From sequence record OP292222.1: a stretch of DNA of 64,000 bases; one strand, given 5' to 3'. The notes beneath the pieces were generated by a model. The model was not told the origin of the DNA. It searched no databases and saw nothing but the letters and a program-made list of their open reading frames with translations. This stretch comes from Escherichia phage Esco_phi_B-01. The stretch's first letter is position 1, and every line of letters starts with the position of its first letter. This document shows positions 198 through 44,381 of this stretch, in pieces. The translations under genes and the position numbers were made by a program.

Positions 198-205
198 TAT
201 AAATA
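198..205 (+). promoter_or_regulatory. T4-type late promoter TATAAATA upstream of inh-like/hoc
   Basis: Exact TATAAATA 34 nt upstream of ATG 239; a minus-strand TATAAATA at 223-230 faces uvsW. Confidence 0.4.
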
Positions 206-238
206 TAATTATATTTATACACCAACAAGAGACTAATT

Positions 239-910
239 ATGGATACTCAATATATTGAAGAGCTTCGTGCACTCGAAGATAAAAAAGAAGCTAAAGCTAA
301 GTTAATCGAATACGGCGAACAATTCGGTTTAAAACTTAAGAAAACCCGTTCGTTTGATAATTTGATTATCGATATCTCTGAAGGCCTTAAAGCCTTGGCT
401 GATGAACCACTTCCAGAAACCGAAGGTTTGTCTATTTCCGATTTGATTGATGCTGCTGACGAACTCACAGGTGCTAATGAATTTGTTGATGGCGCGGAAC
501 CTGCCAAAGAAGAGGCTACCCTATTATTTGATGCCCCTGAAGCGGTAGTTGAAGTTATTGAGGTAGCCGAACTTCCTAAGGTAGAGATTATTGAAGAAGA
601 CGTCCCGTTTGTCGAAGAGAAATTCAAAGAGGCTGTAACCAAGGTTATTGAATCGGAAAAACCTGTATTCTCTTTGCCTGAAAACTTTAGCCCTAATCTT
701 TTACTCATTGGTAAAAACCCAGGGTATTGTACTGTGCCTTGGTGGATTTATCAATGGATTACCGAAACCCCTGATTGGAAAGAGCGTCCTAAAGATTTCC
801 AACACCCATCTGCCCACCAAACACTATTCAGTCTGATTTATTACATTAATCGTAATGGTTCAGTATTAGTACGTGAAACGCGTAATTCATCTTTCGTAAC
901 TTTAAAATAA
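239..910 (+). CDS. Acidic head-associated protein, candidate Inh (prohead protease inhibitor) by position and size
   Basis: 223 aa, Glu/Asp-rich, between uvsW and hoc as T4 inh (226 aa); sequence not recalled independently. Confidence 0.5.
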   Translation: MDTQYIEELRALEDKKEAKAKLIEYGEQFGLKLKKTRSFDNLIIDISEGLKALADEPLPETEGLSISDLIDAADELTGANEFVDGAEPAKEEATLLFDAPEAVVEVIEVAELPKVEIIEEDVPFVEEKFKEAVTKVIESEKPVFSLPENFSPNLLLIGKNPGYCTVPWWIYQWITETPDWKERPKDFQHPSAHQTLFSLIYYINRNGSVLVRETRNSSFVTLK

Positions 911-919
911 GGGTAAAAT

Positions 920-2329
920 ATGGCTTTTACTGTAAGTATAGCCGGCGCTGCGTCTATTAAAATAGGCGAAAGCGCCAACTACACTGCTACCGCAACAGGT
1001 GCAGCTGTAGAAGGAACCGTTACATATGTATGGACCATTGACGGTGCTTCTAATCCGGAGGCAACCAATGTTTTGAAATATACCGGTGTGGCTCCAGCTG
1101 GTAAGAAAGTTTTAAAAGTAGTAGCAACTTCTACTCCAGCCGAAGGCGAACCTGAGGTAGCTGAAAAAACTTTTGAAGTTACCGTAGCTAATAAGACCAT
1201 TGGGGCTCTTTCTTTGACCTTAGACCCTACTTCTGTTTCTAAAGAAATTGGTCAATCCCAAGTTGTTACTGCTAACGTATCGGGTGTCCCTGCTGGCGCT
1301 ACAATTACTTATGTTTGGAAACGTAATACAACTGTAATTTCAGGTCAAACTGGTAAAACTATTACCATAACCGAAGCAGCGGCAGCGAATTACACTTTGA
1401 ACTGTGAAGTTACTGTTACCGCCCCTGAATATGACCCGGCTACAGCTACTAAAGGTATTGCGGTAACTTTTGTTAAGAAAACTATATCAGGCGCTTCCGT
1501 TACTTTAACACCGGCCTCAATTAGTACAGAGAAAGGCTCATCTGCACAGTTTAAAGCGGATGTAGTTGGCGCTCCTTCCGGCGTAAATGCAACTTATTCT
1601 TGGAAGAAAAATGGTTCTATTATTCCGGGCGAAAGCAGTAATACCCTTGCTGTCGATACATCTACAGTAGGTTCTTACACTATTGAAGTTTCGGTAGTCC
1701 TAAAAGGTGCGGATTATAATGATTTAACCGTTACCAAAACCGGAAGTGTAACAATTACTAAAAAGACCATGACAGGTGTTTCTGTTACTTTAGCGCCGGC
1801 CTCTATTAATACTCCGGAAGGAACTCCAGCTTCTTTTAAAGCTACCGTAGCTGGCGCCCCTGCTGGTGCTACTTTTGCATATTCTTGGAAGAAAGATGGT
1901 TCGCCAGTCGCCGGTACCACAGATACTTTAGTAGTCGATACAAGTGCTGAAGGTTCACAGGTTATTGAAGTTTCTGTTGTGGTTTCGGCTACCGACTATA
2001 ATCCTGTGACTGTCAAAAAATCTGGTAATGTAACAATTACGCCTAAAGTCGCTCCTGAACCTGAAGGCGAACTACCTTACGTCCACCCGCTGCCGGTTCG
2101 TAATTCAGCGTATATTTGGGCCGGTTGGTGGGTTATGGATGAAATCCAGAAAATGACACTTGAAGGTAAAGATTGGAAAACTGATGACCCTGATAGCAAT
2201 TATTATCTCCATCGCTATACTCTTCAAAAAATGGTTGCCGATTATCCAGAGGTTGATGTACAAGAATCACGAAATGGAAGAATTATCCATCGTTCGGCTC
2301 TTGACACAGGTATAATTTATTTTTACTAA
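920..2329 (+). CDS. hoc: Hoc outer capsid decoration protein, four Ig-like repeats plus C-terminal capsid-binding domain
   Basis: 469 aa; four repeats of pattern TY.WK..G....G...TL.V.....G.Y..EV.V; C-terminal WAGWWVMDEIQ...YPEVDVQESRNG. Confidence 0.8.
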   Translation: MAFTVSIAGAASIKIGESANYTATATGAAVEGTVTYVWTIDGASNPEATNVLKYTGVAPAGKKVLKVVATSTPAEGEPEVAEKTFEVTVANKTIGALSLTLDPTSVSKEIGQSQVVTANVSGVPAGATITYVWKRNTTVISGQTGKTITITEAAAANYTLNCEVTVTAPEYDPATATKGIAVTFVKKTISGASVTLTPASISTEKGSSAQFKADVVGAPSGVNATYSWKKNGSIIPGESSNTLAVDTSTVGSYTIEVSVVLKGADYNDLTVTKTGSVTITKKTMTGVSVTLAPASINTPEGTPASFKATVAGAPAGATFAYSWKKDGSPVAGTTDTLVVDTSAEGSQVIEVSVVVSATDYNPVTVKKSGNVTITPKVAPEPEGELPYVHPLPVRNSAYIWAGWWVMDEIQKMTLEGKDWKTDDPDSNYYLHRYTLQKMVADYPEVDVQESRNGRIIHRSALDTGIIYFY

Positions 2330-2343
2330 TTTTGGCTAAATAA

Positions 2344-2372
2344 AAACGGGAGAGCGAAAGCTCTCCCGTTTT
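2344..2372. terminator. Bidirectional hairpin terminator between convergent hoc and hoc-like gene
   Basis: cgggagagc-gaaa-gctctcccg stem-loop flanked by A and T runs. Confidence 0.6.
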
Positions 2373-2373
2373 G

Positions 2374-3234
2374 TTATATGACATTTAATGTCAGGTGCTT
2401 CCTATTCAAAATATACCCATTTCTTGATTCCTGTATTTCTACATCAGGATATCGTGACAAAAGTTCTGCCACTTTTGCGAGCTCACACTTATACCTAAAA
2501 TTGCTATCTTCTATATTGATAGCCCAATCCTGGTTTTTATCAAGGGCACCTTTTATCTCATCCAACACCCACCAGCCTATCCACATGTGGGCCCTATTTC
2601 GGCCACCTGGATAAGACAAATACTGATTTAAATCATGTGAGTATATAAATGGACACACTTCAGGTTCAGGTAAATCACCATCCATAGGCATAATATCTAC
2701 CGTAACTATATCATGATACGGATTATAAGCACCTTCGGCTGTGGCAGAGACATTAAGAGAATATGTCCCATACATAGAAGGCTTTATATCAACATCTAAA
2801 TCCTTTACATTTGAAACCATTTTATCATATTTCCACCATTCACACTCTACTTCGGCCCAGGGTGTGGTACCCATAGAAATTAAAGGTTGTAAAGAAACTT
2901 TTTGACCTATTTCAGCCTTTATGATAGCATCTAAATTTTCTATGGAAATAACTATATCTCTAGGCTCTATCCCGATTTCCAAAACAAAATCTTCGCTTTG
3001 AAAAGTCTCTTGTGTTAGCTTATCAGTGGCTATCGCATAATAAGTCCCTGCTGCAGGAAACCCTACATCCCAAAGATTTAGATACATCGGGTCTTCTTTA
3101 TCTAATAATGGAACGTTTACACCGTTTTTGTACCATTTTATATCGACATCGGTTAAAGATTCAGATAAAACAGCCCTAAGAGTTACCGTTCTCCCAACCA
3201 ATTCATAATGAGGTCCATTTACTTGTATAGACAT
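2374..3234 (-). CDS. Hoc-family paralog: Ig-like N-terminal domains plus Hoc-type C-terminal domain
   Basis: 286 aa; C-terminal HMWIGWWVLDEIK...YPDVEIQESRNGYILNR aligns with Hoc C-terminus in this window; Ig-like motifs IKWYKNG, AGTYYAIATD. Confidence 0.75.
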   Translation of the reverse strand: MSIQVNGPHYELVGRTVTLRAVLSESLTDVDIKWYKNGVNVPLLDKEDPMYLNLWDVGFPAAGTYYAIATDKLTQETFQSEDFVLEIGIEPRDIVISIENLDAIIKAEIGQKVSLQPLISMGTTPWAEVECEWWKYDKMVSNVKDLDVDIKPSMYGTYSLNVSATAEGAYNPYHDIVTVDIMPMDGDLPEPEVCPFIYSHDLNQYLSYPGGRNRAHMWIGWWVLDEIKGALDKNQDWAINIEDSNFRYKCELAKVAELLSRYPDVEIQESRNGYILNRKHLTLNVI

Positions 3235-3245
3235 GCTACCTCCAA

Positions 3246-4253
3246 TTAATAAGGGAAACTAACCATTTTAACCAATATAGGTTTATTAGAATCTACACTG
3301 CGCCCGTGTTGAAATACCGTTATTTCTGAAATTGTTTTAGAACCCCATTCCTTTAAGGTTATATTAATAGGACGTAGCCCGTTATATGCCGCACTTACTA
3401 TAACAAATGAGCCTGTAGGAGACAAAGTCTTAGTTCCGCCACCGGTAGTAACCGTTCCACCCGAAACACTAGGAGCAACAAAGTGATAATCACAATATCG
3501 GGTAGTCCCACCTTTACTTAAAATGCTGTATTCTATTTGGTTGTTAACCAATCTAACTCTAAGAACCGTATTGGCGACCCCAGGTATTTTTATTTCGCCG
3601 TACCCAGCAGCAACGTTGGTATACTTATGGAATGAAAACAAATCTGTACCATCTTTACCAGGTTCGCCTTGAGGACCCTGAGGACCTAGAGGGCCAGTAG
3701 CTCCGTCAAGTCCATCAATCCCATCCACCCCAGGAGGACCTTGAACACCTTGCGGACCCTGCTCACCATCTTTACCCGGGATACCCTGTTCGCCTTGTGC
3801 ACCCTGAGAAGCCAATAAGGCCCAGTAAAGGCTGTTTTCTTCAGCAGGATTATTACCGGTAGAATCCTGAACGCAAAAATAAGAAGCCCCATTGTACCCT
3901 ACTGCATCATCCTTAACATAGGCTGTTGCAGCACTCCATGTTCCTTTCCAATTTAGACCCACAGGGCCTACAGGACCAGCCGGGCCTCTCGGTCCTACAA
4001 TGCTTTCACCTTTAGGGCCAGGGATACCAGGGGATAACATTTCTTCGGATATCCCCAAATGAGCCAGAACTTCAGCTCTTCCGGATTTACTAACCAAGCC
4101 TAAGCCATACGAATTACTCCCTACCAATCTTGCCGGGTTTATAAGACTTTCTTTAGTAAGAATTTTTTCAAAAGGGATAACAGTATCCGATTCCTTTAAA
4201 GCAATACCGGAAAAGGTCCCTCGACCGTCATGACCAAAAATAGAATCTGCCAT
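3246..4253 (-). CDS. Collagen-like repeat protein with embedded CBM5/12-like carbohydrate-binding motif
   Basis: 335 aa; Gly-X-Y runs (GIPGPKGESIVGPRGPAGPVGPVG and about 17 triplets GAQGEQGIPGKDGEQGPQGVQGPPGVDGIDGLDGATGPLGPQGPQGEPGKDG) flanking W..TAY..DAVGYNGASYFCVQ...W; GGAG RBS. Confidence 0.75.
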   Translation of the reverse strand: MADSIFGHDGRGTFSGIALKESDTVIPFEKILTKESLINPARLVGSNSYGLGLVSKSGRAEVLAHLGISEEMLSPGIPGPKGESIVGPRGPAGPVGPVGLNWKGTWSAATAYVKDDAVGYNGASYFCVQDSTGNNPAEENSLYWALLASQGAQGEQGIPGKDGEQGPQGVQGPPGVDGIDGLDGATGPLGPQGPQGEPGKDGTDLFSFHKYTNVAAGYGEIKIPGVANTVLRVRLVNNQIEYSILSKGGTTRYCDYHFVAPSVSGGTVTTGGGTKTLSPTGSFVIVSAAYNGLRPINITLKEWGSKTISEITVFQHGRSVDSNKPILVKMVSFPY

Positions 4254-4292
4254 TTAATACTCCTGTTTACAAGTTAAAAATCCTATGTTAAG

Positions 4293-4535
4293 ATGGCTTT
4301 ACCAAACTCAACAAGAGAATTTGTTATGGATAAGGTTAAAGTACATTTTTTACATGAATCTGGACTTAATTTTATAGAAATTGCTAAAAAATTAGGTGGT
4401 ACTGCTAAAGACATGGCTAAAGCATGGGTTGATGTGGAACAGGCCAAGGCCAAATTTAAGTCAAAAGAGAAAGTAGTATATCGCAAACGTCTAATCAATA
4501 AGGTTCGGCGCAAAGCGCGTTCTAGTTCAAAGTAA
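4293..4535 (+). CDS. Small basic protein, possible helix-turn-helix
   Basis: 80 aa, Lys/Arg-rich C-terminus; weak RBS, start uncertain (alternative ATG 4326). Confidence 0.4.
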   Translation: MALPNSTREFVMDKVKVHFLHESGLNFIEIAKKLGGTAKDMAKAWVDVEQAKAKFKSKEKVVYRKRLINKVRRKARSSSK

Positions 4536-4563
4536 TATGCTTTAAATTTAGGTGTGTTATAAT
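4536..4563 (+). promoter_or_regulatory. Candidate T4 middle promoter (MotA box TGCTTTA plus extended -10 TGTTATAAT) for rnlB
   Basis: ATGCTTTA at 4537-4544, TATAAT at 4558-4563 with TGn, 13 bp apart. Confidence 0.3.
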
Positions 4564-4649
4564 GGGTCTAGGTCCTTCCGTTAAACCATTTGGCTTGGTG
4601 ACAGAAGATTACTAGCTCTTCTATTTAATTATATTTATTATGGTGATTT

Positions 4650-5657
4650 ATGTTCAAGAAATATAGCAGTCTGGAAAACCACTACAACAGTAAGTTTATC
4701 GAAAAACTCCGTACCAATGGTTTGACTGGTGGCGAATGGGTAGCACGTGAGAAGATTCATGGAACCAACTTTAGTTTAATCATAGAACGTGACGCAGTCA
4801 CATGCGCCAAGCGCACGGGTCCAATTCTCCCTGCTGAAGATTTCTATGGTTATGAAATTGTACTTAAGAACTATGCTGATTCTATTAAATCCGTACAAGA
4901 TATTATGGAAACTTCGGCAGCCGTATCTTATCAAGTTTTCGGTGAATTCGCTGGAACAGGCATTCAGAAGAACGTTGATTACGGTGATAAAGATTTTTAT
5001 GTATTTGACATTATTGTTACAACCGAAAGTGGCGATGTGACTTATGTCGACGATTATATGATGGAATCATTTTGTAAGACGTTCAAATTTAAAACGGCGC
5101 CACTTTTAGGTCGTGGTAAATTTGAAGACCTTATTAAATTGCCAAATGATTTGGATTCCGTCCTTCCTGATTATAATTTTACAGTAGATAATGTCGGGCT
5201 AGCCGAAGCTAATGCTCATGTGTGGAATGCTGAAGCAAAAGGCGAAGTATTTACCGCTGAAGGGTACGTATTAAAACCTTGTTATCCACTTTGGCTCCCT
5301 AATGGAAATCGTGTAGCGATTAAATGTAAGAACTCTAAATTCAGCGAGAAGAAAAAGTCTGATAAGCCTATTAAAGTTGCAGTAGTATTATCTCAAGACG
5401 ATTTAGATTTATTACAACAATTCACTGATTATGTGACTGTTAACCGTATTAACAACGTTATCAGTAAGATTGGTGAAGTATCACCTAAAGATTTCGGAAA
5501 GGTAATGGGACTGACGGTCCAAGATATTTTGGAAGAGGCAGCCCGTGAAGAATTAGAATTAACCGATGCAGAAAACCCTGTTGAAGTTAAAAAGCAGCTC
5601 GTTGAGTGTGTAAAAGATACGCTACGGGCCGTGTGGATTGAATTAGTATCCAAATAA
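4650..5657 (+). CDS. rnlB: RNA ligase 2 (Rnl2)
   Basis: 335 aa; near-colinear with recalled T4 Rnl2 ([20 protein letters not shown]..., KIHGTN adenylyltransferase motif I). Confidence 0.9.
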
Positions 5658-5662
5658 ACAGT

Positions 5663-5692
5663 AAAGGGACCTTACGGTCCCTTTTATTTTTC
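5663..5692. terminator. Bidirectional hairpin terminator between rnlB and gp24 paralog
   Basis: gggacc-ttac-ggtccc then T-run. Confidence 0.6.
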
Positions 5693-6964
5693 TAGTGGTG
5701 GAAGTTTAACACCAAGATAAGAACTCAACTGGCTTTGGTTAGCCATTTTGTCCATATCAGAGCCATCAATAATGCGGGCTTCTTTATCGTCCTTAGCGAC
5801 GGTATAAGGGTTTGCAGTCAATGCATAACGAGCAAGCAATGCTACTGTAGGTTGTAAGCTTTCCGGGTCAACAATAACCTTAAATTCACCTACTGAAGTA
5901 TCACCTTCTTCATCAACCACATCCAAACCTTCCGTATAAGGCGCATAATATAAAGATGCGACCGTCTGTCCTTCACCCATCTGGGCATTTACACCAACAA
6001 TAACATAATCACATGGACTATTCATATCAGCATAAAGAGGCAGACCATTCTTTAATACACCATAGGCCAATTCGTCTTGGTCTTCCTTTTTCTCAACCCA
6101 ACCGGAAGCGGCGAGAATAGCAGCACAACGAGAACTAGCTACTGCATAAGTCCCAGCGAAAGAAGTTTGACGTTGGACGGCAGAGTTCATCTCACACATG
6201 TAATAATATAATGTACGAGCACGGTCCTGGGCGTTATCGTAACGTGGGTTGGTAAGGTCTAATACACCTTTTTCAGAAACACCTTGGACTTTAAAACGAG
6301 AACTCACCGTAATTAATGACTGTAATACATCCTTATTAATTTCTTCTGCCATTTGGATGCCTAGCAGATTTTCAACGAAATTAGGAGCATTAAACCCGTT
6401 TGATTCTAGGTCCTGGGCTAATTCGACTGTCAATGAAGTTTTCAGTTTACGTGATTTAACTTCAGATTGCCATTTATCAATACGGAAGCCTGCTTCAGCA
6501 ATTTCAGGATGGCCTTGTTCGAATTTAGAAGTAATAGCAGCATCCGATACCATACGAATATGTCCGGCTGCCACTGCTTCAGAAATAACTTCACCGAGGT
6601 CGGTTTCTGTGGTTCCAGCGAAAGGAGATGCTTCTAGAACTTTAAACACCACACTTTCAAACTGGAACATATCGCCGGCTGCATAAGCTGTAGACGAATC
6701 GGCAAATTCAGGAATATTTTCACGTTCCGACATACCAATCTGGCCCGCAAATGTAGCACCACCAAGATAAGTCATTTTGTCGTCAGGGTTAAGTACACGA
6801 ACCCCGTACAGAGCAGCAACAGGTTGGCTTGTTTTTTGTTCAGCAACTAGGGCTTTAAAGATTCGTTTATTAGTTGCTTGGGTGTATGAAAGAAGAGCAG
6901 GACGGCCAACCGAGTTGGCAGCCGTCAATGTGGATTCTTTAATTAGGTCTATAATCTTAGACAT
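5684..6964 (-). CDS. Second gp24-family head vertex protein (diverged paralog)
   Basis: 426 aa; gp24/gp23 fold motifs shared with adjacent gp24 (RIDKWQSEVKSRKLKT, ELAQDLESNGF, EINKDVLQSLITVS) but strongly diverged. Confidence 0.85.
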   Translation of the reverse strand: MSKIIDLIKESTLTAANSVGRPALLSYTQATNKRIFKALVAEQKTSQPVAALYGVRVLNPDDKMTYLGGATFAGQIGMSERENIPEFADSSTAYAAGDMFQFESVVFKVLEASPFAGTTETDLGEVISEAVAAGHIRMVSDAAITSKFEQGHPEIAEAGFRIDKWQSEVKSRKLKTSLTVELAQDLESNGFNAPNFVENLLGIQMAEEINKDVLQSLITVSSRFKVQGVSEKGVLDLTNPRYDNAQDRARTLYYYMCEMNSAVQRQTSFAGTYAVASSRCAAILAASGWVEKKEDQDELAYGVLKNGLPLYADMNSPCDYVIVGVNAQMGEGQTVASLYYAPYTEGLDVVDEEGDTSVGEFKVIVDPESLQPTVALLARYALTANPYTVAKDDKEARIIDGSDMDKMANQSQLSSYLGVKLPPLEK

Positions 6965-8247
6965 TAATCAGCCTCGTAAATAATTGCTGGAAGTTTAACA
7001 CCAAGCAGATAAGACATATTACTCTGTCCGGCCATTAAATCCATATTGGTGGCATCGATAACACGAGCTTCTTTATCGTCTTTAGCTACGGTGTACGGGT
7101 TAGCGGACAGTGCATAACGAACCATCAGAGAAATAGAAGGCTGTAATGAATCCGGGTCGACAATAACCTTATAAGCACCAACGTGTTCTGGGTCGTCTAA
7201 ATCCAGGCCTTCTGTATACGGGGCATAGAAAATAGAACCGACAACTTCATTACCGCCATAGTTCTCTTTAACACCTACGATAACATAATCCAATGGGCTG
7301 TTAACGTCACAGAACAATGGTAATCCATTCAACAAATAACCATAGGCAGTTTCTGGGAGCCAATTATTATCTTCAGGTCTATGTTTTAACCAGCCAGAAC
7401 CTGCAAGCATTGCAGCCACACGACTTGAAGCCACAACAAACGTACCGGAATAAGAAGTAGTTTTCTGGATTTCAGAATTCATCTCACAAACAATTTCATA
7501 AAGTTTACGTGCAGATTCTGGAGCACTATCATAAGTCAAATCGATGATGCCATTATCAGATACACCCGTAACTTTATAGCGTTTAGATACGGTTATCAGA
7601 GATTGCAGAACGTCTTTATTAATTTCATCTGCCATTACTGTAGCCAGGAGGTCTTCTAAGAATGCAGGGGCGTCGAAGCCATTTGATTCCATATCCTGGG
7701 CCAATTCTACAGTCAAAGCAGTCTTCAATTTACGGGTCTTAACAGGAGCATTCCATTTATTAACCTGGAATACAGCATCAGAGATTTCTACATTACTCGC
7801 TTCGAATTTAGTGGTATGGGCTGCATCAGGAACCAGACGACATGTTAATGACACCAAACCTTCTTGAAGGGCATCAGCCAATCCTGTAGCGCTAGTGGAT
7901 GCGAGTGGGCTTGCTTGAAGAGCCTTATAAACCACATTCTGATACTTAAAGTAGTCACCCTTGGCAATCGCCTGGGCTTTATCTGTGAGTTCTGGGATAG
8001 TTTCACGGTCTTTAGAACCAACTTCACCACCATAAACAGCACCAGTTTGGAAACTGAATTCATTATCAGGGGTAAGATATTTGACACCGTACAATGCAGC
8101 AATAGGCTGACTAGTACGTTGTTCAGCGATGATATCGCGATAAATTAGTTTAGTGGTAGCACGGGTCAAAGCAACAAGATTAGGGCGACCCAATGAGTTG
8201 CTGGTAGTAGTTGTTGACTCGCGCAGTAATTCGTTAATCTTTGCCAT
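6964..8247 (-). CDS. 24: Head vertex protein gp24
   Basis: 427 aa; MAKINELLRESTTT... matches recalled T4 gp24; stop overlaps start of paralog at 6964. Confidence 0.9.
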   Translation of the reverse strand: MAKINELLRESTTTTSNSLGRPNLVALTRATTKLIYRDIIAEQRTSQPIAALYGVKYLTPDNEFSFQTGAVYGGEVGSKDRETIPELTDKAQAIAKGDYFKYQNVVYKALQASPLASTSATGLADALQEGLVSLTCRLVPDAAHTTKFEASNVEISDAVFQVNKWNAPVKTRKLKTALTVELAQDMESNGFDAPAFLEDLLATVMADEINKDVLQSLITVSKRYKVTGVSDNGIIDLTYDSAPESARKLYEIVCEMNSEIQKTTSYSGTFVVASSRVAAMLAGSGWLKHRPEDNNWLPETAYGYLLNGLPLFCDVNSPLDYVIVGVKENYGGNEVVGSIFYAPYTEGLDLDDPEHVGAYKVIVDPDSLQPSISLMVRYALSANPYTVAKDDKEARVIDATNMDLMAGQSNMSYLLGVKLPAIIYEAD

Positions 8248-8275
8248 TGCGCTTTCCTTATTGAGGGTATATGTT

Positions 8276-8283
8276 TATTTATA
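8276..8283 (-). promoter_or_regulatory. Late promoter TATAAATA (minus) for gene 24
   Basis: Reverse complement of tatttata, about 30 nt upstream of gp24 start. Confidence 0.45.
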
Positions 8284-8288
8284 AAGTT

Positions 8289-8340
8289 GTTTACAGCAAG
8301 GTTCTCACGTGTTACTATAGTCCTATCAAAACACGAGGAG
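8289..8340 (+). promoter_or_regulatory. Early promoter with stem-loop (PeSL-like) driving the 88-aa ORF
   Basis: GTTTAC, 18-bp spacer, TACTAT, then conserved AGTCCTATCAAAAC. Confidence 0.5.
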
Positions 8341-8347
8341 ATTAAAA

Positions 8348-8614
8348 ATGAACAAATTAAACTTTATCCGTACCACGCTTTCTAACCTTGACAAAGACAT
8401 CAAAGCTCTGGTAGAAAAATTTGGTACCAATCCTAACGGTAATGCAGTTAATGCATTGGTTAAGAAATACGAAGCTCTGGCTTATGAAACCGACTTCTGG
8501 TGGAACGGCGAATACTCTACCCATACCAAAGACAAATATGGTAACTGGCTGAAAATCCAAGAAAATCGTATTGACTTCCGTGATATCATCAACCGTCGAG
8601 TTAAGATTGCATAG
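8348..8614 (+). CDS. Hypothetical protein at the position occupied by segD in T4
   Basis: 88 aa; GGAG RBS; own promoter and downstream terminator. Confidence 0.5.
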   Translation: MNKLNFIRTTLSNLDKDIKALVEKFGTNPNGNAVNALVKKYEALAYETDFWWNGEYSTHTKDKYGNWLKIQENRIDFRDIINRRVKIA

Positions 8615-8629
8615 TACAGAAACAAGAAT

Positions 8630-8647
8630 GGGAGACCGAAGTCTCCC
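8630..8647. terminator. Hairpin terminator (tetraloop) shared by gp23 and the 88-aa ORF
   Basis: gggagac-cgaa-gtctccc. Confidence 0.6.
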
Positions 8648-8663
8648 ATAATAAGGTTAGGTA

Positions 8664-10223
8664 TTAGATACCTTTAACATAAACGCGACGGAAGTAACCA
8701 TTCAGACCGAGGCTGTTAACGATGTCAGGCATACCGCTCTGAATACGTTTGGTAGGAGCCTGTGCAGACGGGTCAGCGAACGGGTTAATACCGATACCGT
8801 AACGAGTTTTGAAGCCCATTACCGGCTGGAAGTTCTTCGGATCGGAACCGCGCAGTGGGGTAAGTGCAACGTAAGGAGCGTAGTAGATACCTGCGTCCAT
8901 TTCGTTGGAACCTTTATAACCGATGGTGAAGTAATCAGCACGGGCATACTGGTCGATGTAAACGCGATATTTACCACCAAGAACACCGGCAAATACTGCT
9001 TTAGTGGTGTCAACGTTGAAACCTTGACCCAGACCTTGAGCTGCATAACTTACAGAAGTATCAACTGCAGCCAGTACGTTAACTACGTTACGGGAAGCGA
9101 TGATGAAGTTACCAGCACCACGACCGGTCTGACGAGCGATTTCGGCTGCTTCTTTATCAATCTGGAACAGAAGGGCTTTAAAGCTCTCACCGGCCCAACG
9201 AGCACCACGGATATCAATCGGGTCCTGGAAGTCAAACACACCAGCTTTAGCGCCAACGGTGTTGGTCATACCAGATTTACCAACCTGTGCAGAGTAGTTA
9301 ATCCAATCGATAACTTCACGGTTGATTTCGAGCATAATTTCGGTAGCAAGGATACCGGACAGTTCAGCATCTGCATCCATACCGTGTACTGCACGAAGGT
9401 CCTGTGCCAGTTCGATGGAATAGCTTGCTTTCAGCTGACGGGATTTAGCTTCGATAACTTGTTTATCGATACGGAAGCCCATTTCGTTCCACGGGTTATC
9501 CTGAGAACCGTTAAAGCCTTCCTGAAGTTCAGCGATAGAAGTAGCCATACCTTCAGCCAATTCAGCCAGCTGACCAGCTTCCAACAGAGCAGTTACGGCA
9601 ACATCCAGTTTAGCGGCATCAGTAGCAGCAGCATCAACGGTTACGGCTTCAACAGCCTGGAAGTGTGCAGCACCGGTAGCTTCGAAGAAGTGAGAATAAA
9701 TTTTACCAACTTCCAGAACTTTACCTGCAGCCAGTGCTTCAAAAGTCTGAGCAGCGCCCTGACCAGAGAACATAGCGTTCGGAGCATACATCGGGTGGAA
9801 AGCTTCTTTAGCGCCAGCAGCGATAGGGTCTTTACCGTATACTGCACGCAGTGCAAATACCTGGCCGGTAGGGTTATTCAGAGGCTGAACACCACAAATA
9901 TCAAAAGCAATCAGATGAGGAATAGCACGACGAACCATACCCATTACTGCCGGCCCAATCTGAGTTACAGCACCAGAGGTCTGGCCAGCTGCGATATTGG
10001 TAGCATCATAACCGTGGTCACCACCGATTTCAGCTTCGGTCAGGAAAGAACCAAATGCTTCAGAGATTTTTTCGTCACGATATTCAGGAGCGGTCAGAAT
10101 ATCTTGTTCCTGGTTTTCGAAAATTTTAGCGATGATAGCTTGTTTAGAAGCACCAACGATTTCAGGAAGAGCTTCGTTTTCCAGCAGAGCGGACCATTTT
10201 TGAACTAATGCATTCTTTTTCAT
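8664..10223 (-). CDS. 23: Major capsid protein gp23
   Basis: 519 aa; long stretches identical to recalled T4 gp23 (AEIGGDHGY..., QIGPAVMGMVRRAIP, DNPWNEMGFRIDKQVIEAKSRQLKA). Confidence 0.97.
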   Translation of the reverse strand: MKKNALVQKWSALLENEALPEIVGASKQAIIAKIFENQEQDILTAPEYRDEKISEAFGSFLTEAEIGGDHGYDATNIAAGQTSGAVTQIGPAVMGMVRRAIPHLIAFDICGVQPLNNPTGQVFALRAVYGKDPIAAGAKEAFHPMYAPNAMFSGQGAAQTFEALAAGKVLEVGKIYSHFFEATGAAHFQAVEAVTVDAAATDAAKLDVAVTALLEAGQLAELAEGMATSIAELQEGFNGSQDNPWNEMGFRIDKQVIEAKSRQLKASYSIELAQDLRAVHGMDADAELSGILATEIMLEINREVIDWINYSAQVGKSGMTNTVGAKAGVFDFQDPIDIRGARWAGESFKALLFQIDKEAAEIARQTGRGAGNFIIASRNVVNVLAAVDTSVSYAAQGLGQGFNVDTTKAVFAGVLGGKYRVYIDQYARADYFTIGYKGSNEMDAGIYYAPYVALTPLRGSDPKNFQPVMGFKTRYGIGINPFADPSAQAPTKRIQSGMPDIVNSLGLNGYFRRVYVKGI

Positions 10224-11090: not shown

Positions 11091-11726
11091 TTATAACGCT
11101 TTTTTCATGGCCTCTGCGAGAGCCATAAAGGCGTCATCGGCACTGGTATCGGTATCTACCGTTTGTGATTCTGTAATTTGTTTAGGAGTTACATAAGCAT
11201 CAGGAGCAGATGGACCCCATACTGCATCAACACCGACGGTTAATTTATAACCTTCGTTTACACGCTTATATCCTTTATTGGTTTCGGTTAAAGAACCTAG
11301 ACCACGAGAACTAACACCAGGCACCCAACCAGCTCTAATATTAGCAGCTAGTTTATCACCAGGACCATGGTCGCCTTCAATAATACGAGCACGTCCATAA
11401 ACGTCATTACCTTTCCACCACATATCTTCAATAATAATAGCGGCTTGCATAGGGTCGACGTTAGCACGAGGCGGATGATTTAATTCTCCTAAAGCTTGTT
11501 TAGTAGCAACCTGTTCTGCCATATAATCGGCAACAGCTTTTTCCAAAATAGGTTTTGGATAAAGGCGTTTATTACGGTTAACCACTTCGGCTTGCATGAA
11601 TATGCCTTCTATATAAAGGCCCGGGGCAAGTCCAGAATCTTTTCCATCATGAGATTCCAACATCGGAACCCCATCGATAATTTCACCTGGTTGTCCCCAA
11701 TGTTCGATGAGCAATTCAGGTTTCAT
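11091..11726 (-). CDS. 21: Prohead core protease gp21
   Basis: 211 aa; matches recalled T4 gp21 (GEIIDGVPMLESHDGKD, NHPPRANVDPMQAAIIIEDMWWKGNDVYGRAR). Confidence 0.95.
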   Translation of the reverse strand: MKPELLIEHWGQPGEIIDGVPMLESHDGKDSGLAPGLYIEGIFMQAEVVNRNKRLYPKPILEKAVADYMAEQVATKQALGELNHPPRANVDPMQAAIIIEDMWWKGNDVYGRARIIEGDHGPGDKLAANIRAGWVPGVSSRGLGSLTETNKGYKRVNEGYKLTVGVDAVWGPSAPDAYVTPKQITESQTVDTDTSADDAFMALAEAMKKAL

Positions 11727-44148: not shown

Positions 44149-44222
44149 GGCCCTGTAGCTGGACGGTCAAGCGAGCGACTCATAATCGCTGGATGGTGGT
44201 TCGATTCCACCCAGGGCCACCA
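44149..44222 (+). tRNA. tRNA with CAU anticodon (Met or lysidine-modified Ile)
   Basis: Hand-folded cloverleaf: acceptor ggccctg/cagggcc, anticodon stem agcga/tcgct, loop cuCAUaa, T-arm ggtgg-ttcgatt-ccacc, encoded CCA. Confidence 0.8.
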
Positions 44223-44226
44223 ATTT

Positions 44227-44301
44227 GGATGTGTAGCTCAGTGGTAGAGCAGTTGACTGTTAATCAATTGGTCCATGGTTCGAATCCATGCATGTCCGCC
44301 A
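44227..44301 (+). tRNA. tRNA-Asn (GUU)
   Basis: D-arm gctc-agtggta-gagc, anticodon loop cuGUUaa, T-arm catgg-ttcgaat-ccatg, 7-bp acceptor with two G-U pairs, encoded CCA. Confidence 0.8.
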
Positions 44302-44305
44302 AATA

Positions 44306-44381
44306 CGAGGCATAGCTCAGAAGGAAGAGCAACGGTCTTCTAAACCGTAGGTCGTAGGTTCGATCCCTACTGTCTCGACCA
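44306..44381 (+). tRNA. tRNA-Arg (UCU)
   Basis: Anticodon stem acggt/accgt, loop cuUCUaa, T-arm gtagg-ttcgatc-cctac, encoded CCA. Confidence 0.85.

Follow-up and report, generated by a model that had tools for sequence, protein, structure and literature searches.

In bacteriophage T4, the head vertex protein gp24 (PDB 1YUE, 5VF3 and 7VS5) is present in 55 copies at 11 pentameric vertices and is cut after residue 10 by gp21, the prohead protease, which takes off the ten N-terminal residues at an (L/I)-x-E|S point (PMC9958956). An older duplication, from gp23 to gp24, gave the T4-like phages this dedicated vertex protein and is a precedent for capsid paralogs that share out positions in the shell. 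The occupancy of the vertices is replaceable in T4, where gp23 fills them in bypass-24 mutants (PMC9958956; PMC10580926). Whereas T4 has one gene 24, two are found in Escherichia phage Esco_phi_B-01 (sequence record OP292222.1), of which a stretch of 64,000 nt, referred to below as the window, was analysed. These are 24a, encoding the canonical head vertex protein, and 24b, encoding a divergent, conserved paralog. The same genes in the same order (g23, a small reverse open reading frame (ORF), 24a, 24b and rnlB) occur in Escherichia phage JS10 (EU863409) and in JS98 (EF469154), both of the genus Dhakavirus. Positions 5600-8400 of the window are 97.5% identical in nucleotide sequence to JS10 and 85% to JS98, and 24b shares 99.5% of its amino acids with the JS10 counterpart. 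In JS98 and VR7, the stop and start codons of the two genes are adjacent, whereas they overlap by 1 nt in the window; no other difference of substance was observed. The GenBank names 24a and 24b are already used in JS10, JS98 and IME08, and the pair also appears as 24(1)/24(2) in VR7, as capsid vertex protein I/II in VR5, VR20 and VR25, and as head vertex protein I/II in Salmonella phage CGG4-1. Since the pair has long been annotated under these labels, the feature is already known; it is ordinary for this phage group and adds nothing new to the catalogue. A preliminary description, made from the sequence of this stretch, had named a duplication typical of the group and already characterised as grounds for its refutation. 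The pair is indeed typical and long annotated, whereas no characterisation or discussion of the function of 24b, or of a second vertex protein, was found in the searchable literature.

Our results firmly identify 24a and 24b as two functional vertex-protein paralogs in a conserved, already annotated cassette, and the signals around them predict that both are expressed together. The interpretation towards which we lean, with modest confidence, is that 24a serves as the standard vertex protein and 24b as a specialised one, which probably forms homopentamers of its own at some of the vertices.

Both genes are uninterrupted (Table 1) and meet at the junction ...GAT TAA TGT..., where the TAA of 24a (6966-6964) and the ATG of 24b (6964-6962) overlap by 1 nt (TAATG, 6966-6962). 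BLASTP aligned the two proteins with 241 of 428 positions identical (56%), 77% positives and three short indels (E = 1e-180), a similarity far beyond chance. Identity to T4 gp24 is 70% for 24a and 58% for 24b, with ca. 56%-57% between the two copies. The T4 gp24 structure 1YUE was matched over its full length by 24a (664.8 bits, E = 4e-199) and by 24b (507.6 bits, E = 2.6e-151), whereas T4 gp23 scored far lower (44 and 47 bits, respectively), and the gp23 of the window itself aligned with 24a at 27% identity over 254 aa only. Both proteins passed the Pfam profile PF07068 (Gp23; cut-off 24.4 bits), scoring 330 and 326 bits, and 24b matched PHROG 138 (E = 2e-123). While gp23 and gp24 are ca. 20%-27% identical and occupy hexamer and pentamer sites, respectively, 24a and 24b, at 56% identity, both have the look of pentamer subunits. 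The HK97 fold with its inserted I domain is implied for 24b by its end-to-end alignment with 1YUE.

The likeness to T4 extends to the surroundings. Both genes combine a homology to gp24 that greatly exceeds that to gp23, a site just past gene 23 (g20-67-68-21-22-23-24a-24b-rnlB) and a shared late-promoter box, as expected for the T4 gp24 family. The N-termini read MAKINELLRE|S in 24a and MSKIIDLIKE|S in 24b, so that the (L/I)-x-E|S motif stands at residue 10 in 24a (LLRE|S), in 24b (LIKE|S) and in all 13 of the 24b sequences compared. Both proteins are likely to be processed and incorporated in the head. The ORFs, BLASTP and the 1YUE matches bear out, to the exact coordinates, two complete gp24-family genes arranged head-to-tail with an overlap at 6964, and the statement that T4 has a single gene 24 also stands. 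In calling the upstream copy T4-like, the preliminary description was right in the direction of transcription only, as the genes lie on the minus strand. The downstream copy is the diverged one; "strongly diverged" overstates a difference that leaves an end-to-end alignment with three short indels.

The signals flanking the pair point to a single late transcript. The only late-promoter box of the pair, TATAAATA, lies upstream of the 24a ATG (last base at 28 nt, first base at 36 nt), and the pattern search of the window detected no box within 24a or 24b; the whole window holds 18 such boxes compared with 7.2 expected by chance. A hairpin sets the gene 23 transcript apart from the 24a-24b unit. 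This arrangement was compared across ten two-copy loci, namely the window and nine others, all with the JS98-type cassette layout. The junction gap was -4 to +1 nt in 10/10, the late promoter began 33-37 nt ahead of 24a in 8/10 and lay inside the pair in none of the ten, and a hairpin followed 24b in every case. Given a single late promoter before 24a, a stop/start overlap and a single terminator, both proteins should be made together, late and from one mRNA. We infer that 24a and 24b form a conserved bicistronic late operon, presumably with translational coupling.

Conservation of 24b was evident well beyond Dhakavirus. A tblastn search with 24b detected a gp24 homolog in 1,418 of 50,697 phage records, 113 of which carry a 24b ortholog (77%-100% identity) that is full length, in one piece and intact in all. 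These records span Dhakavirus, Gaprivervirus, Gelderlandvirus (S16, Melville and CF-SP2), Kanagawavirus (Q7622, CIP9 and Kosakonia phage 305) and Marfavirus (F48, Marfa and P545). Deeper members with 66%-76% identity, found by a search of 5.8 billion proteins, comprise those of Erwinia phage FBB1 and of uncultured contigs, a more distant 24b (69%) that falls in the same clade, and 24b orthologs span at least six lineages in all. The layout from gene 23 through the canonical gp24 to 24b was the same in every locus inspected, including those on uncultured contigs. No locus with 24b only was found in IMG/VR or among the top matches from the 5.8 billion proteins, where the six contexts checked were pairs.

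Purifying selection acts strongly, and to a similar degree, on both genes. The ratio of nonsynonymous to synonymous substitution rates (dN/dS; Nei-Gojobori method, NG86) in the comparison of the window with JS98 was 0.064 for 24a, 0.058 for 24b and 0.082 for gene 23. Over all pairs of six genomes it ranged from 0.02 to 0.16 for 24a and 24b together (ca. 0.02-0.10 for 24b), values that are approximate for most inter-genus pairs, where dS is near or past saturation. GC content, GC at third codon positions (GC3), the codon adaptation index (CAI) and the effective number of codons (ENC) are alike in 24a and 24b and give no sign of a compositionally foreign 24b. Across 11 genomes, identities between pairs of 24a orthologs co-vary with those between pairs of 24b orthologs (r = 0.91). 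We also rejected concerted evolution of the copies, or gene conversion between them, as the 24a-24b identity within genomes (52%-57% in all 11) does not exceed that between genomes. Because dN/dS is low, codon usage is alike and the identities co-vary, 24b is neither a pseudogene nor a drifting copy. A second copy decayed to a pseudogene, which would have undone the preliminary description, was thus not encountered: 24b is intact in 113/113 records.

The origin of the pair was addressed with neighbour-joining trees of 45 gp24 sequences. Five settings were used, which differed in the distance (Kimura, or gamma with alpha 1 or 0.5) and in whether residues 59-147 were included, and the key bootstrap supports were counted as unrooted splits. 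The 24b proteins were monophyletic in 100/100 bootstraps, and the 24b of the window falls inside this clade. In each of the five settings, 24b joined the window-type 24a clade, or all 24a, in 0/100. The partner 24a proteins were not monophyletic (0/100) and formed three groups, each supported at 100% and interleaved with single-copy gp24; one upstream partner groups with the T4/CC31 type. The split in which the canonical clade excludes 24b received 28%-72%, and the trees do not fix the exact attachment point of 24b. Root-to-tip lengths of the 24b and canonical clades are about equal, so that no burst of fast evolution need be assumed. Two indels agree with an old split between 24a and 24b. The loop at T4 293-300 is short and outgroup-like in 24b, which lacks the KHKPEDDxYL extension of T4-type proteins and window-type 24a, and an acidic insertion of 4-7 residues at T4 350-357 is unique to 24b.

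The placement of two equal-sized paralogs head-to-tail is what a recent, lineage-specific tandem duplication with a drifting or pseudogenised second copy would produce. This explanation is refuted: in all five analyses, 0/100 bootstraps united 24b with the 24a beside it, the two copies are 52%-57% identical in 11/11 genomes while 24b orthologs are 66%-99% identical over at least six lineages, and a dN/dS of ca. 0.06 goes with 0 disrupted copies in 113 records. A recent in situ duplication was rejected because the copies are not closest kin, 24a being nearer to T4 gp24 (70%) than to 24b (57%). The pairwise identity and gp24 phylogeny proposed as checks in the preliminary description thus returned 56% and a separate 24b clade, respectively. 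Its tandem duplication as a trait of this phage is not supported in view of the 24b clade with its 100% bootstrap and at least three partner lineages. The two genes are rather an old paralog pair, to which the term tandem duplication fits at most as a very old event.

In the gene 23 tree, two-copy phages are scattered among single-copy ones, with CF-SP2 beside the single-copy phage KM16 and P545 beside CC31. Escherichia phage 04086 (OR842557, labelled Dhakavirus) has a gene 23 region 95% identical in nucleotides to the window and a single gp24. Its annotation looks fragmented and its assembly quality is uncertain. Within Kanagawavirus, Edwardsiella phages PEi20 (NC_028683) and PEi26 have one gp24, whereas other members of the genus have two. 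A 24a-24b recombinant was considered for phage 04086 and rejected; its gp24 showed sliding-window identities of 68% to 24a and 55% to 24b throughout and represents a third canonical type. The scatter of two-copy phages and the single gp24 of 04086 and PEi20 suggest that the pair behaves as a cassette alternating with a single-gene cassette, via loss or homologous exchange. Judged by these comparisons, the locus of gene 24 is mosaic and exchangeable as a module.

To define what sets 24b apart, 13 24b sequences were set against 27 canonical gp24 sequences, of which 13 are partner 24a and 14 come from single-copy phages, differences being taken as fixed at 90% or more. Twelve such differences from canonical gp24, including that of T4, were found (T4 numbering): V25L, A26S, T32N, L34R, Y36F, K56R, Y57V, P244Q, I261V, Y267F, E335Q and L415Y. 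Seven of the 12 fall in residues 25-57, and L34R, Y57V and E335Q hit residues that are invariant also in Krischvirus, Biquartavirus, Gualtarvirus and Acinetobacter phages. In the 24b of the window, L25, S26, N32, R34, F36, R56 and V57 are seen in LLSYTQATNKRIFK...RVLNP and Q244 in the alignment; the residues at positions 261, 267, 335 and 415 are read from the 90% clade rule. The same comparison yielded 0 residues specific to paired 24a, showing that 24a is indistinguishable from gp24 where T4-like phages have only one. Over residues 29-58, 24a is 77% conserved relative to single-copy gp24, compared with only 56%-58% for 24b relative to either. The full gp24 length is kept in 24b, and so are the 131 columns that do not vary in any gp24 sequence of the Tevenvirinae.

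These differences can be read against the contacts of the expanded T4 head, in which gp24* residues 26-29 pair, as a parallel beta-interaction, with the I-domain linker of the next subunit within their pentamer (PMC9546572). Residues 11-20 of gp24* extend onto the adjoining gp23 hexamer, and the I domain sits atop the adjacent subunit (PMC9546572). Residues 11-22, which include the hexamer-contact stretch, are identical at 8/12 positions (STLTAANSVGRP in 24b vs. STTTTSNSLGRP in 24a), and the intra-pentamer strand changes from ALTR in 24a to SYTQ in 24b. In the proposed mechanism, both proteins would be cleaved and serve as pentameric vertex subunits of the head, 24a in the standard role and 24b as a specialised version that largely keeps the hexamer-facing residues 11-22 and alters those in contact within the pentamer. 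The changed subunit-subunit contacts might keep 24a and 24b from mixing, and 24b homopentamers might then sit at some of the 11 non-portal vertices; these last two steps are the least certain. The specialised vertices or neofunctionalisation envisaged in the preliminary description are a reasonable proposal, with which the site pattern of 24b is compatible.

The same observations bear on an arrangement in which 24a and 24b form mixed (hetero-)pentamers at every vertex. The 24b-specific changes fall in elements contacting the neighbouring subunit, the translational coupling (-4 to +1 nt in 10/10 loci) suggests co-synthesis at a fixed ratio, and canonical gp24 stands directly upstream of 24b in all loci inspected, with no 24b-only locus found. 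However, equal numbers of two subunits would break five-fold symmetry, and 24b is partnered with three different canonical gp24 lineages. Moreover, a new interface should mark both partners, and the lack of any 24a-specific adaptation therefore counts against obligate hetero-pentamers. We consider mixed pentamers unlikely.

Alternatively, 24b could be a spare or alternative vertex protein, sufficient on its own and useful under certain conditions (temperature, pH or the gut) or in evading host defence. This would suit the patchy distribution and the cassette-like exchange of the gp24 locus among close relatives, as well as the full conservation of both 24a and 24b, and the composition of the T4 capsid is known to affect stability to low pH and digestive enzymes (PMC10580926). 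A self-sufficient protein should, however, also occur alone, and the failure to find a phage with only 24b in IMG/VR or in the contexts from the protein search counts against it. Co-transcription and tight coupling speak against conditional use, and our analysis gave no evidence of a defence system that targets gp24. A role of this kind is accordingly improbable.

Several points weigh against homopentamers of a specialised 24b. In T4, the 55 gp24* subunits at the 11 vertices share one conformation (PMC9546572), which leaves no obvious geometric need for two vertex proteins, and close relatives (04086 and PEi20) manage with one gp24. Divergence of 24b in the I domain (residues 59-147) is non-diagnostic, as this region varies in every comparison and evolves fastest in all gp24 proteins. 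The AlphaFold2 model of 24b, built on a 55-sequence alignment, was of poor quality, with a mean predicted local distance difference test (pLDDT) score of 61 and a predicted template modelling (pTM) score of 0.51. The searchable literature yielded neither proteomics nor a structure for a phage with two copies.

Downstream of 24b, the window encodes a collagen-like protein and a short Hoc-like protein on the same strand, beyond rnlB and 24.3 on the opposite strand. A homologous pair lies directly past 24b on the same strand in five of seven uncultured contigs with two gp24 genes (L041, positions 4890-6427, L042, L043, L045 and L047), with 48% identity to the window over the first 187 aa and 40% over the Hoc C-domain. 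Among T4-like isolates, the collagen-like N-terminal domain occurs mainly in two-copy lineages (JS10, dhaeg, dhabil, CLB_P2 and Erwinia phage FBB1), and it is present in Aeromonas phage 65 and in Erwinia phages Cronus and IT22, for the latter two of which the gp24 copy number was not checked. These genes may constitute a head-fibre module physically linked to 24b.

This neighbourhood also enters into a proposal that 24b acts off the shell, either in assembly, for example in timing the activation of the prohead protease, or as a docking site for the collagen-like and Hoc-like proteins. In T4, activation of gp21 is believed to be set off when gp24 attaches at the vertices (PMC9958956), and the collagen-like and short Hoc-like genes directly follow 24b in 5/7 uncultured two-copy loci. 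Set against this, 24b keeps the full gp24 length, the 131 invariant columns and the cleavage motif, and the collagen/Hoc-like pair is missing from JS98, CF-SP2, P545 and Q7622, which do carry 24b. A function outside the shell is very unlikely on this evidence. For a 24b that does form homopentamers in the shell, a more specific version can be suggested, in which these would sit at geometrically distinct vertices (apical, or one ring of five) and perhaps dock the collagen-like fibre and the short Hoc-like protein; we regard this version as unlikely.

The region from 900 to 4600 (hoc, short hoc-like and collagen-like genes) was complete only in JS10 among the 50,697 phage records, and other Dhakavirus genomes cover at most 43% of it. 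Two hoc-family genes lie in this hypervariable head-decoration region. Nearby, a 369-nt hypothetical ORF of JS10 (EpJS10_0174, positions 4681..5049 of the JS10 sequence) in the gp24.3-rnlB interval is missing from the window (ca. 4536..4649), which thus differs from its closest relative by a small indel. The 88-aa ORF between gene 23 and 24a is kept at the same place in JS10, JS98, VR7 and Mosigvirus APCEc01; T4 has the homing endonuclease gene segD there instead. The coordinates of all features are given in Table 1.

Table 1. Features of the 64,000-nt window of Escherichia phage Esco_phi_B-01 in and around the 24a-24b pair.
Feature	Position	Strand	Remarks
Two TATAAATA boxes	198..219	both	Opposite strands, back to back with 6 nt between them; immediately ahead of inh (239..910)
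hoc, long, Ig-domain	920..2329	plus	
Short Hoc-like protein	2374..3234	minus	286 aa; Hoc capsid-binding C-terminus
Collagen-repeat + CBM_5_12 'tail fiber-like' protein	3246..4253	minus	335 aa
rnlB	4650..5657	plus	Convergent with 24b; same terminator
Bidirectional GC-rich hairpin terminator	5663..5684	both	Terminator scan; directly after 24b stop
Gene 24b, divergent conserved vertex-protein paralog	5684..6964	minus	426 aa; uninterrupted ORF
Ribosome-binding site GAGG for 24b	6972..6975	minus	Sequence; in 24a 3' end, 7 nt ahead of ATG
Gene 24a, canonical head vertex protein	6964..8247	minus	427 aa; uninterrupted ORF
Shine-Dalgarno-like AAGGA	8255..8259	minus	Sequence; 7 nt ahead of 24a start codon
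T4-type late promoter TATAAATA	8276..8283	minus	Pattern search
88-aa ORF	8348..8614	plus	Between gene 23 and 24a; PHROG 6003 (function unknown)
Hairpin terminator after gene 23	8628..8649	minus	Terminator scan; 9-bp stem, 5 GC pairs, T-rich tail
Gene 23	8664..10223	minus	24a lies just downstream
gp21 prohead protease gene	11091..11726		
Three tRNA genes (Met-CAT, Asn-GTT, Arg-TCT)	44149..44381	plus	Sole Rfam matches in the window

The interest of the pair, which is modest, rests on the place of 24b in the capsid. At least six T4-like lineages keep a second, differently "zippered" vertex protein under strong selection, and why they do so is a question for structural virology, given that T4 and some very close relatives need only one for a head of this kind. 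For recognising 24b in density, the acidic insertion and the 12 signature residues can serve as markers. If 24b does form pentamers at geometrically distinct vertices, these would be the first tailed-phage capsids known with two penton proteins at defined positions.

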